A stretch of 48,133 nt of DNA from a virus (taxonomy: Duplodnaviria > Heunggongvirae > Uroviricota > Caudoviricetes): IMG/VR virus record IMGVR_UViG_2519899779_000002; one strand, 5' to 3'. This document shows, one piece after another, positions 24,001-27,000 of the stretch (position 1 is its first letter; the number at the start of each line of letters is the position of its first letter). The position numbers are program-made.

Positions 24001-27000
24001 GATCAACGCCACCTGTCCAGGCTCCGTGCGTGAAGCCCCCACCACCTCCGGCGTGGATAATGCAACCGGCCCCCAACTGGCAGACACCGTTACACGGGAT
24101 TATTTCACCCTCAGAGAGCGGCTGATGACGATGCACAAGCAACTGGAAGGGGCACAGGACTATATCCGCACTCAGTGCCTGAAATAAGTTTTGTTGATGC
24201 GCCGTATCGTCGCTGTATTCCCTCATTAACAGAGACCGCAGCCCGACAGGGAGACTCCTCTGCGCGAGTGTGCGGGGATAATCAAAAACGATACACACCG
24301 GGGTTTACCGCGTTAACGGAGCGCGGCGTTGTCCCCTCATAGTCGCCTGTCCGGTGCGATGGTGGAAGAAGCCGGATGTTTATCACTATTAATTGATGAC
24401 ACAGAAATGGATTCATTGAATTTCAGCACGTTTTTGTATTCGTGTTATTGAACATCTGTTTATTTTACTTTTAACATATTGATAATAAAAAGAGCTGTAA
24501 ATCTTTAGATGAGTCGATTTTGTCCGGGGAAGTTCAAATGGATTTTATGCTGACGGTTTCTGGTGTGGTTATCCTGTCCATTGCTTATACTGCAGATAAA
24601 TATGGCTGCCATTTGTTATCACGTATTGGCGCTTATTGTTCGTTGATGCTGATTTTCTCGTCGCTTTTTTTTGAGTAAGTTATATTAATTATAACAAATA
24701 ATTTTCTGTGTTATTTTTTCAGGCTATCCCGTCAGAGGGGAAGCCTGTACTGCCGGGGAGCGAATGGAAAACTGATGTGTCCGGTAACTGCGTGTTCTGT
24801 GAACACCATGTTACTTAATTATGTAATTCATACCCGAACTCTCTGTTGACAGCCTTCTTCTGCAGGCTTCAATAACCCACGCTGAAAAGTTTCCTGAACC
24901 TTTCAGATCAAGAGCGATGTTAATTTGTTCAATCATCTGGTTTGGAAATCGGATGTTGCGGGTTGTTGTTCTGCGGGTTCTGTTCTTTGATGACATAACG
25001 TTTCCCCATATTCAGTGTTGCTGATTTGTATTATCTGAAGTTGCTTTTACGTTAATTTGACGCAGATCAATTAATACGATACCTGCGTCATAATTGATTA
25101 TTTCTCGTGGTTTGATGGCGTACACACATGTTGTGATAAACCTTATATAGATGATAATCATTATCATTTCGTGGGTCCTTTCCGGCGATCCGACCGGTTA
25201 CGGGGCGGCGACCTCGCGGTTTTTCACTATTTATGAAAATTTTTCAGGGAAAATCGTGTCGGTACTTCTCGAATATAACTTTTTGTTTTTTTTAATATTA
25301 CATCCGTAAAGGTCCGACATGAAAGTGTCCGAAAATGCCTTTTTCTGGCGTTTTCATGTCGGGCCTTGTATTTGATAATGGGTTGTTTTCATGAAGGTTA
25401 ATAAAAAGAGGCTTGCCGAAATTTTCAACGTGGACCCGCGGACGATTGAACGCTGGCAGTCTCAGGGACTCCCTTGCGCCTCCAAAGGTAGTAAGGGCAT
25501 TGAATCTGTATTTGATACTGCCATGGCAATTCAGTGGTATGCGCAGAGGGAAACTGATATCGAAAACGAAAAGCTCCGCAAAGAACTGGACGATTTGCGT
25601 GCGGCAGCGGAGTCAGATTTACAACCCGGCACCATTGACTATGAACGCTACCGGCTCACAAAAGCGCAGGCAGATGCGCAGGAACTGAAAAATGCCCGTG
25701 AAGACGGAGTAGTGCTGGAAACTGAACTGTTTACCTTCATTCTGCAACGTGTGGCACAGGAGATTTCGGGGATACTTGTGCGTGTGCCGTTGACATTACA
25801 GCGTAAATATCCGGACATTTCACCATCACACCTTGATGTGGTGAAAACTGAAATCGCGAAAGCCTCCAATGTTGCAGCTAAGGCCGGTGAAAACGTGGGC
25901 GGGTGGATCGATGATTTCAGACGCGCAGAAGGCAGCTAATGCAGCCGGTGCGATAGCTACAGGGCTTTTATCTCTCATTATTCCTGTTCCACTGACGACA
26001 GTTCAGTGGGCCAATAAACATTATTACCTTCCTAAAGAGTCGTCTTATACCCCCGGGCGGTGGGAAACACTGCCGTTTCAGGTTGGCATCATGAACTGTA
26101 TGGGCAACGATCTGATTCGCACGGTTAACCTGATTAAATCTGCCCGTGTTGGTTATACAAAGATGTTGCTGGGAGTGGAGGCTTATTTTATTGAGCATAA
26201 ATCACGCAACAGCCTTCTTTTTCAGCCCACGGACTCAGCTGCTGAAGATTTTATGAAATCTCATGTTGAGCCAACGATAAGGGATGTTCCTGCATTGCTG
26301 GAGCTGGCTCCATGGTTCGGAAGAAAACACCGCGATAATACGCTCACCCTGAAGCGTTTTTCCTCCGGTGTGGGGTTCTGGTGTCTGGGTGGTGCGGCAG
26401 CAAAAAACTACCGTGAAAAATCCGTGGATGTGGTCTGTTATGACGAGCTTTCCTCGTTCGAACCGGATGTTGAAAAAGAGGGTTCGCCAACCCTGCTGGG
26501 GGATAAACGTATTGAGGGCTCTGTATGGCCAAAATCCATTCGCGGCTCGACGCCTAAAATCAAAGGCTCCTGCCAGATCGAAAAAGCCGCTAACGAGTCG
26601 GCACACTTCATGCGTTTTTATGTGCCCTGTCCGCACTGTGGGGAGGAGCAGTATCTGAAATTTGGCGATGATGCCTCGCCTTTCGGTCTTAAGTGGGAGA
26701 AGAATAAACCAGAAAGTGTTTTCTACCTTTGTGAGCATCATGGCTGTGTGATCCATCAGTCTGAGCTTGACCAGAGTAACGGGCGGTGGATCTGTGAAAA
26801 CACGGGCATGTGGACCCGTGACGGCCTGATGTTTTTCAGCGCCCGGGGTGATGAAATTCCGCCGCCGCGTTCCATCACTTTCCATATCTGGACGGCGTAC
26901 AGTCCGTTCACCACCTGGGTACAGATTGTCTATGACTGGCTGGATGCACTGAAAGATCCCAACGGCCTGAAAACCTTTGTGAACACCACGCTGGGCGAGA

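Follow-up and report, generated by a model that had tools for sequence, protein, structure and literature searches.

The interval between Rz and cos in a lambdoid prophage: an apparent mosaic of a conserved folded element, an AT-rich cassette with a candidate membrane peptide, and a YlcI/YnfO family gene

Results

Separable modules between Rz and cos

The virus record IMGVR_UViG_2519899779_000002 (Caudoviricetes) from IMG/VR provided the 48,133-nt stretch of DNA analyzed here, hereafter called the window. Our subject is the 1013-bp interval within it (24190-25202) that separates the lysis gene Rz from the cohesive-end site cos, and which is 100% identical over its full length to a lambdoid prophage of the 2011 Escherichia coli O104:H4 outbreak lineage. 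We lean toward reading this interval as a mosaic of three independent modules rather than as one system. The modules are a GC-rich, conserved 182-nt element that appears to fold as RNA (24197-24378, plus strand), an AT-rich, moron-like cassette (24379-24810) whose 46-codon open reading frame (ORF46; 24538-24678, plus strand) probably encodes a real membrane hairpin, and a gene for a 61-residue protein of the YlcI/YnfO family (24811-24996, minus strand). The RefSeq annotation of the identical O104:H4 prophage includes both of these ORFs, the former as WP_000347013.1, 'hypothetical protein', and the latter as WP_001329960.1, 'YlcI/YnfO family protein'.

An earlier reading of this DNA from its sequence alone (the sequence-only reading) had described about 1 kb of AT-rich DNA upstream of cosN, encoding a plus-strand 46-residue peptide with a ribosome-binding site and a minus-strand 61-residue protein. 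Both ORFs are indeed present, the first preceded by a Shine-Dalgarno-like GGGGAA (24526-24531) with 8 nt from its last G to the ATG, and the cosN cohesive-end sequence GGGCGGCGACCT is found at 25203-25214. The description as AT-rich holds for 24379-25202 (36-41% GC), comprising the cassette at 36.3%, ylcI at 40.9%, and 24997-25202 at 38.3%. It does not hold for 24197-24378, which at 58.8% GC is a separate conserved element; the GC content is 54.6% for Rz and 49.9% for the terminase gene Nu1. This element in the left part of the interval had been missed, as had the family membership of the 61-residue protein.

The three modules come apart in related phages. In phage vB_EcoS-569R3, the DNA equivalent to 24197-24378 is joined directly to ylcI, with ~24379 to ~24855 absent and both flanks conserved. 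Among IMG/VR contigs, homology to the window typically starts at 24191 or 24197 and stops at 24996 or 24997, that is, at the ylcI start codon, past which some contigs continue with lambda-type cos/Nu1 and the others with an HNH endonuclease and an HK97-type terminase. In locus L218, assigned to a third lineage, the peptide cassette gives way from ~24788 onward to unrelated genes and a different terminase, and there is no ylcI; the same position, ~24788, marks the end of the cassette core in contexts lacking ylcI. The gene ylcI is found without ORF46 in lambda, 434, the K-12 prophage DLP12, and many contigs, and indeed in most lambdoid prophages. Because 569R3, the IMG/VR borders, and L218 each separate the modules, the left element, the AT-rich cassette, and ylcI can be said to assort independently.

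The cassette bears the marks of a moron, being precisely absent from close relatives, such as sibling phages, between conserved neighbors, and having a base composition unlike that of its flanks. It was present in 733 of 5426 complete E. coli genomes (~13%), including O157:H7, O26, O111, and O104 strains, and some part of the 1013-bp interval was matched in 4347 of the 5426.

The sequence-only reading had also placed bor and small accessory genes of lambda at this position, and this was borne out. Lambda, 434, and DLP12 carry bor, p78/ybcV, and p79/ybcW between Rz and cos, marking the interval as an accessory-gene slot. The order is rzpD-borD(-)-ybcV(-)-ybcW(+)-ylcI(-)-nohD in DLP12 and Rz-bor(-)-p78(-)-p79(+) in lambda, whose p79 is 100% identical to YbcW. 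ORF46 occupies the same slot as p79 and ybcW, each being a small plus-strand ORF that converges on ylcI within optional DNA between the lysis genes and cos. The products, however, have no sequence similarity, and YbcW is a protein of 68 aa with 9 Asp and 5 Glu, without a hydrophobic stretch like that of ORF46. The lambda genes bor and p78 lie on the strand opposite to ORF46.

A YlcI/YnfO family protein is encoded beside cos

The 61-residue minus-strand protein matched PF13132 (DUF3950) with 67.5 bits against a cut-off of 25, NF041551 with 35.2 against a cut-off of 30, and phrog_949 with an E-value of 9e-32. By these sequence matches it is a member of the YlcI/YnfO family, a known family that has no assigned function. 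The family is small, with 106 clusters at 50% identity among 1.84 billion representatives. E. coli K-12 has two members, YlcI (b4589) in DLP12 and YnfO in Qin, and the gene in the window has the same position and orientation as K-12 ylcI, divergent from the terminase small-subunit gene across cos. This placement, next to cos and the terminase small-subunit gene and on the opposite strand, is common to the window, DLP12, 434, lambda, and the IMG/VR contexts. Lambda itself (NC_001416) has an intact but unannotated YlcI/DUF3950 homologue at 48148-48303 on the minus strand (2249-2404 of locus L221), just left of cosQ, which is 90% identical over 52 aa with a ratio of nonsynonymous to synonymous substitution rates (dN/dS) of 0.05. 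Our literature search on YlcI, YnfO, and DUF3950 returned gene lists and listings, and no functional paper was found.

The first 50 codons of ylcI were compared with their counterparts in PPyecE, 569R3, 434, DLP12, and lambda. Synonymous divergence was large (dS 0.78-0.89) and nonsynonymous divergence small (dN 0.045-0.049), giving dN/dS values of 0.05-0.06; with K-12 YlcI, for instance, there are ~5 nonsynonymous differences (dN 0.045). Within 24853-24996, which encodes the conserved domain, 24 of the 33 variable sites fall in third codon positions. These comparisons show ylcI to be under strong purifying selection.

The conserved domain comprises the N-terminal ~50 aa, and the last ~12 aa are encoded by cassette DNA. 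Across the family the C-terminal tails vary freely in length and sequence, and the tail in the window, STESSGMNYIIK, is derived from the neighboring cassette and unrelated to the tails of the K-12 proteins. This 12-residue tail is consistent with a by-product of cassette exchange, arising by read-through after recombination inside the conserved domain.

The sequence-only reading had noted a pattern in this protein resembling a ribbon-helix-helix domain. The AlphaFold model is a strand-helix-helix (E15-18, H19-31, and H39-55), with KGSGNFS before the second helix and a mean predicted local distance difference test (pLDDT) score of 62.5. When YlcI was compared by hhalign with six ribbon-helix-helix reference sequences, the YlcI segment RNIRFPNQMIEQINIALDLKGSGNFS was set in register with FNLRWPREVLDLVRKVAEENGRSVNS of Arc (P 0.004), and there was a weak match to the HicB-like phrog_497 (E 0.012). 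YlcI resembles Arc and Mnt of phage P22 in size, and its N-I-R-F-P aligns with N-L-R-W-P of Arc, followed in both by helix A and a G-x-S turn. Several results weigh against this assignment. The hhalign probability was low, at 8%; no ribbon-helix-helix Pfam family was matched at E ≤ 1 by any of 33 YlcI family members; and sequence searches of the PDB with YlcI were empty. Fold searches with YlcI likewise did not confirm a ribbon-helix-helix fold. YlcI further differs from Arc and Mnt in lacking a significant sequence-family or structure match, in having its gene beside cos and not in the immunity region, and in that the DNA upstream of ylcI is not conserved between contexts. The earlier pattern is thus upheld in the predicted order of strand and helices and in the register with Arc, and was left unconfirmed by the fold searches. 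We consider the ribbon-helix-helix assignment plausible, and YlcI would then probably be a strongly constrained, dimeric, Arc/Mnt-like DNA-binding protein encoded beside cos in lambda-type and HK97-type lambdoid phages, lambda included.

A distant DUF3950 homologue of 129 aa (P0243; 4001-4390 of L222) was encountered as a fusion to an N-terminus with weak likeness to Terminase_2. The contig that encodes it also carries an integrase and a primase-helicase, and looks like a phage satellite. The fusion may link the DUF3950 family to DNA packaging.

The GC-rich element downstream of Rz has predicted helices supported by covariation

The element at 24197-24378 matched 398 phage records at identities down to 74%, among them lambda-like phages, 434, Stx1 and Stx2 phages, and Salmonella phage SPN3UB. 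Its borders are sharp (ATGCGCnGTATCGTCGC ... GGTGGAAGAAnCCGG), and the flanking sequences are unrelated. In ~130 non-redundant contexts the element was always found downstream of Rz or of Rz-bor and on the Rz strand, and what comes after it is ORF46, ylcI, or one of three types of terminase.

A consensus structure was obtained with RNAalifold from an alignment (A6) of 33 sequences, none of which was more than 92% identical to another. The structure has two long-range helices, GTATCGT/ACGATAC and TATTCCCGCAT/GTGCGGGGATA, together with an inner stem, a central hairpin domain, and a 3' hairpin. In the window, the helices are formed by 24204-24210 with 24288-24294, 24216-24226 with 24270-24280, 24235-24244 with 24249-24269, and 24300-24309 with 24325-24336, and the 3' hairpin by 24349-24355 with 24371-24377. 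On this structure 96.7% of the alignment cells pair. Compensatory double changes were seen in 14 of the 39 pairs, compared to 6.0 ± 1.7 in column shuffles and 2-8 when the partners were slid by 1-3 columns, and not one of 500 shuffles reached the observed value on any of five measures. Owing to G-U pairs, the plus strand pairs better than the minus strand (96.7% versus 86.5%), suggesting that it is the late transcript that folds.

Other results weigh against a functional fold. The single-sequence z-score of the element was only -0.39, the consensus fold lies 6-18 kcal/mol above the minimum of each sequence, and the structure was scored on the same alignment that produced it. Even so, the late transcript appears to carry the element as a conserved RNA structure.

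We considered, and rejected, the possibility that 24175-24342 encodes a protein. The ORFs that run over the element (24175-24342, plus strand, in the window; 1193-1438 in L087; 1235-1438 in L089) seed phrog_6954 and are labeled 'Rz-like spanin' or 'hypothetical protein' in some records, and the corresponding frame in Stx phages is known as ORF B85. Copies of the element differ by indels of 1, 2, and 10 nt, and a TAG in the window is TGG elsewhere. Since the indels are not multiples of 3 and the TAG/TGG polymorphism cuts the frame, we conclude that the element is not coding.

Rfam 15 gave no relevant match to the region at E ≤ 1 over 23000-26000 or at E ≤ 10 over 24180-24400. The chance matches, to three unrelated families in the larger stretch and two eukaryotic microRNA families in 24180-24400, were all far below the gathering scores. 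The known EHEC prophage small RNAs AgvB, AsxR, and Pas were set aside as candidates, as they are located near Q/pR' or the holin genes and not at the locus of the element, and the main text of a catalogue of ~10,000 candidate phage RNAs (PMC10690425) makes no mention of the locus. By analogy only, the element may be likened to the RNase III site sib of lambda and to the put RNA of HK022, which are also conserved folded RNAs within a long phage transcript and without their own promoter. It differs from both in having no sequence or Rfam relation to them, in its position at the end of the lysis module, and in being larger, with multiple helices and strongly conserved unpaired stretches.

DLP12 (3510-3624 of L220) and lambda (969-1082 of L221) retain only the 5' 117 nt of the element, which is cut where ybcV/p78 begins. 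The absence of the rest of the element from these two would explain why it has not been met in lambda genetics. As to function, we would guess that the element, lying where the lysis module ends, serves in processing or stability; a ribozyme-like motif is another possible role.

ORF46 probably encodes a small membrane protein

ORF46 spans 141 bp and translates exactly to MDFMLTVSGVVILSIAYTADKYGCHLLSRIGAYCSLMLIFSSLFFE, 46 aa. Searches of Pfam, NCBIfam, and PHROGs (E ≤ 1) and of PADLOC (E ≤ 10) gave no family match for it. A search of 5.8 billion proteins returned 13 clusters, all from E. coli and 84-100% identical, and no copy was found in the GTDB one-genome-per-species representatives. Two records in the phage collection and 96 stretches in IMG/VR encode ORF46, the latter as near-identical copies only.

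T-rich codons specify hydrophobic residues, yielding frames rich in Phe, Leu, Ile, and Val. Since the plus strand is T-rich around ORF46 (AT skew -0.18 to -0.27), the hydrophobic composition of the peptide is largely expected. There are 45 ORFs of at least 25 aa within 3.5 kb around ORF46, and a 46-codon hydrophobic ORF in such DNA is within chance expectation. The evidence for a real peptide comes only from the comparison of alleles.

These alleles fall into three lineages: the type found in the window, the L217/P0007 type, and the diverged SHP24 type, with 81% DNA and 71% protein identity. The reading frame, start codon, and GGGGAA are kept in all three, while the bases flanking GGGGAA vary, and in 4 loci the ATG has been replaced by GTG. 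In the deepest comparisons between lineages we counted 13 nonsynonymous versus 11-12 synonymous changes over 129 nt, where a ratio of ~3:1 would be expected; the resulting dN/dS is 0.27-0.32, with binomial p values of 0.02 and 0.008. Close alleles are distinguished by three synonymous third-position polymorphisms, one change of Thr to Ile, and one of ATG into GTG. The replacements are conservative (V/I, S/A, and L/I/M). The best-conserved part of the peptide is A19-C34, corresponding to the loop and the start of helix 2, in which 14 of 16 residues are identical between the most diverged alleles, and whose conserved motif is ADKYG..LLSRIGAYC. The 3' end of the ORF is variable, as the T8 run at 24664-24671 is T9 in SHP24 and of other lengths in P0002, and such changes in run length alter the C-terminus (..LFFE, ..LFF, or ..LFFFLSKLY).

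The AlphaFold model of ORF46, which drew on four sequences only, is a hairpin of two helices (residues 2-21 and 25-44; pLDDT 89.5). The peptide has a grand average of hydropathy (GRAVY) of 1.11; its termini bear the acidic residues D2 and E46, and its loop K21, H25, and R29. We judge it fairly likely that ORF46 is a real protein and, from the model, that it is probably a genuine small membrane protein in the form of a two-helix hairpin.

As the single gene of the cassette, ORF46 would specify a 46-residue helical hairpin of the inner membrane. The location of the basic residues in the loop suggests, by the positive-inside rule, that both termini would be periplasmic and the short basic loop cytoplasmic. 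The conservation of the loop and the start of helix 2 above all other parts leads us to infer that ORF46 would act by way of a specific membrane partner, of host or phage origin, to which it binds, and not by unspecific membrane damage; roles could include, for example, modulation of a transporter, a sensor, the lysis machinery, or phage DNA entry. Its co-orientation with the late operon, together with the lack of a detected consensus promoter, suggests that the peptide would be made at least in lytic growth, via read-through from pR'.

Alternative explanations for ORF46

A number of observations weigh against a real protein, and several would suit an untranslated, chance open frame in a T-rich and AT-rich spacer, with the conserved part of the cassette being non-coding, whether as a promoter or regulatory region, as DNA bound by H-NS, or as a transcript. 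The test for selection is based on three lineages and 24-25 substitutions only. At 18% divergence, ORF46 is barely better conserved than the upstream non-coding flank at 23%, and in simulations 38% of sets of 24 random substitutions also kept the frame open. Over a block of 35 nt upstream of ORF46 (24458-24492, plus strand), the window and SHP24, the most diverged allele, do not differ, and L217 departs from both at one base, compared to the 18% differences within ORF46 itself. The hydrophobicity of the peptide follows from the T-rich strand, and a hydrophobic 46-mer would model as helices anyway. The variation in the T8 run modifies the C-terminus in some alleles, ORF46 has no family match, homologues outside E. 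coli were found neither in the protein nor in the GTDB searches, and literature searches by peptide sequence and by accession found no paper. Scans revealed no plus-strand sigma-70-like promoter of its own upstream of ORF46 and no convincing terminator, the downstream hairpins being weak. Against an untranslated frame stand the excess of synonymous changes (p 0.02 and 0.008), the conservative nature of the replacements with the loop motif kept, the retention of GGGGAA and of a start codon even where ATG has become GTG, and a transcript without significant RNA structure; the fold of 24500-24720 had a z-score of 0.10, with 99 of 200 shuffles folding at least as well. We therefore regard the non-coding explanation as rather unlikely, if still one to be taken seriously, and retain the small membrane protein as the preferred reading. 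The 35-nt block may in any case be a regulatory site, judging by its conservation, though it does not match the sigma-70 consensus; the sole promoter-like site near it is on the minus strand (24501->24473).

If ORF46 is a protein, its two predicted transmembrane helices and its location on the late strand, 350 nt downstream of Rz, could also fit an accessory of the adjacent lysis cassette that adjusts lysis timing in the manner of a holin or antiholin. We find this improbable. The peptide ends in ...SSLFFE, without the charged C-terminal tail typical of holins, and it matches no PHROG lysis family. The prophage already has a class II holin upstream, and class II holins and pinholins are placed at the head of a lysis cassette, whereas ORF46 lies downstream of Rz. 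The cassette is moreover optional, and the conserved element intervenes between it and Rz.

The sequence-only reading had suggested toxin-like small proteins, with the 46-residue peptide having the composition of membrane-active toxins, although it could not match the peptide to Hok, Ldr, TisB, or Ibs. A type I toxin of this kind would be a membrane-depolarizing peptide restrained by an antisense RNA. ORF46 does resemble these toxins, and the two-helix GhoT, in being small and hydrophobic with predicted membrane-inserted helices, and it has a ribosome-binding site; the composition, however, is largely what the T-rich strand gives. The failure to match known toxins was reproduced with Pfam, NCBIfam, PHROGs, and PADLOC. 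An antisense RNA had been proposed as something to look for, and a perfect extended -10 sequence, TGTTATAAT, does lie on the minus strand just past the ORF46 stop codon (24696->24688), from where it would drive an RNA antisense to the 3' end of the ORF. We rejected this candidate, as its -10 (24693->24688) is TATGAC in SHP24 and is lost by a 10-nt deletion in L217; the scan found no terminator-like site on the minus strand, and Rfam contributed no antitoxin RNA. A small RNA ending at the T8 run inside ORF46 was likewise rejected, there being no hairpin before the run and the fold z-score being 0.10. Thus ORF46 differs from the type I toxins in having no family match, no conserved antisense RNA gene, and no structured leader or unusually structured mRNA. 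Its conservation peaks in the loop and not in the hydrophobic helices, and the locus is single-copy on the strand of the late operon. A type I toxin appears very improbable on these grounds.

It might also be imagined that ORF46 and YlcI form a pair, with YlcI as a ribbon-helix-helix antitoxin or repressor whose cassette-encoded tail neutralizes or senses the peptide. Type II antitoxins are usually made of a ribbon-helix-helix domain followed by a C-terminal tail that varies, and the cassette border falls inside ylcI, so that the tail of YlcI changes with the cassette. At the equivalent position in K-12, ybcW-ylcI is among the convergent overlapping transcription units (PMC12288877). Yet type II partners are co-transcribed in one operon and inherited jointly, whereas ORF46 and ylcI are convergent and share no operon. 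ORF46 is found beside a different terminase without ylcI in L218, most lambdoid prophages with ylcI have no ORF46, and the tail amounts to ~12 residues only, with tails varying freely as read-through into new DNA would give. The pairing is contradicted by the convergence of the genes and by their independent occurrence, and we give it scarcely any credence. With it, the toxin-like interpretation of the interval finds no support: no toxin family was matched, no antisense promoter is conserved, the mRNA is not unusually folded, and the two genes are independent. The reading we prefer remains that of a small membrane protein encoded by a cassette that is separate from ylcI.

Exactly between the convergent ORF46 and ylcI, and overlapping the ylcI stop codon, we observed an imperfect 14-nt inverted repeat (24784-24814) with the core GTGTTC-TGT-GAACAC. 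It may be a weak bidirectional terminator, with no U-run after the repeat.

Flanking and cos-proximal features

To the left, the interval is bordered by Rz (23714-24187, plus strand), an i-spanin gene with the Rz1 lipoprotein frame embedded in it, which forms the end of the lysis cassette and is annotated as 'lysis protein' in the identical prophage. To the right, a cosQ-like GGGTCCT (25173-25179, plus strand) precedes cosN, in agreement with the right end of lambda and with the cosQ annotation in phage 434, and is followed by the gene for a Nu1-type terminase small subunit (25391-25939, plus strand). An ORF of 51 aa on the minus strand (25012-25167) matched phrog_9395 over its full length (1e-39). 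The DNA containing this ORF is conserved for packaging, sharing ~87-88% identity with lambda and lambda-like phages at their right end, and the ORF is probably an annotation artifact and not a gene.

Between ylcI and cosQ we also noted nested inverted repeats, TGACGCAG/CTGCGTCA and ATCAATTAATACG/CGTCATAATTGAT, and a palindrome, ATGATAAT-C-ATTATCAT (25058-25098 and 25151-25167), which are present in lambda too. They could be operators for YlcI or packaging sites.

Further upstream, the identical O104:H4 prophage has a YdfR-family gene after the holin gene that is annotated as a truncated pseudogene (1251-1586 of L001; from the locus offset, ~21440-21775 of the window). Between this pseudogene and the lysozyme gene is an unrelated 315-bp minus-strand ORF (2067-2381 of L001; ~22256-22570 of the window).

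Discussion

With regard to what had been seen in the sequence at the outset, the observation is real but ordinary, consisting of a member of a known uncharacterized family and an already annotated orphan ORF. It yields no evidence of a toxin-antitoxin system. Of greatest interest in the interval is instead the conserved folded element, which had earlier been counted as spacer.

Few small genes in the right arm of lambdoid phages are as strongly constrained as YlcI/YnfO, which is present yet unannotated in the lambda reference genome. It offers an accessible target within the 'y-ome', with a concrete Arc-like hypothesis. ORF46, carried by ~13% of complete E. coli genomes, would give the prophages of pathogens a small membrane protein whose loop is conserved, and is cheap to test.

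A broader proposal, which we put forward tentatively and would not yet back, is that the element represents an undescribed class of structured RNA at the lysis-module end of lambdoid late operons, in lambda-like, 434, Stx/933W-like, and Salmonella phages, with five covarying helices and conserved unpaired stretches, and that next to it the window encodes an orphan membrane peptide on the late strand, with a conserved cytoplasmic loop and perhaps a specific host or phage target. If functional, the element would be a new cis-RNA in the best-studied phage family, and its recognition would correct the labels 'hypothetical protein' and 'Rz-like spanin' now attached to it.

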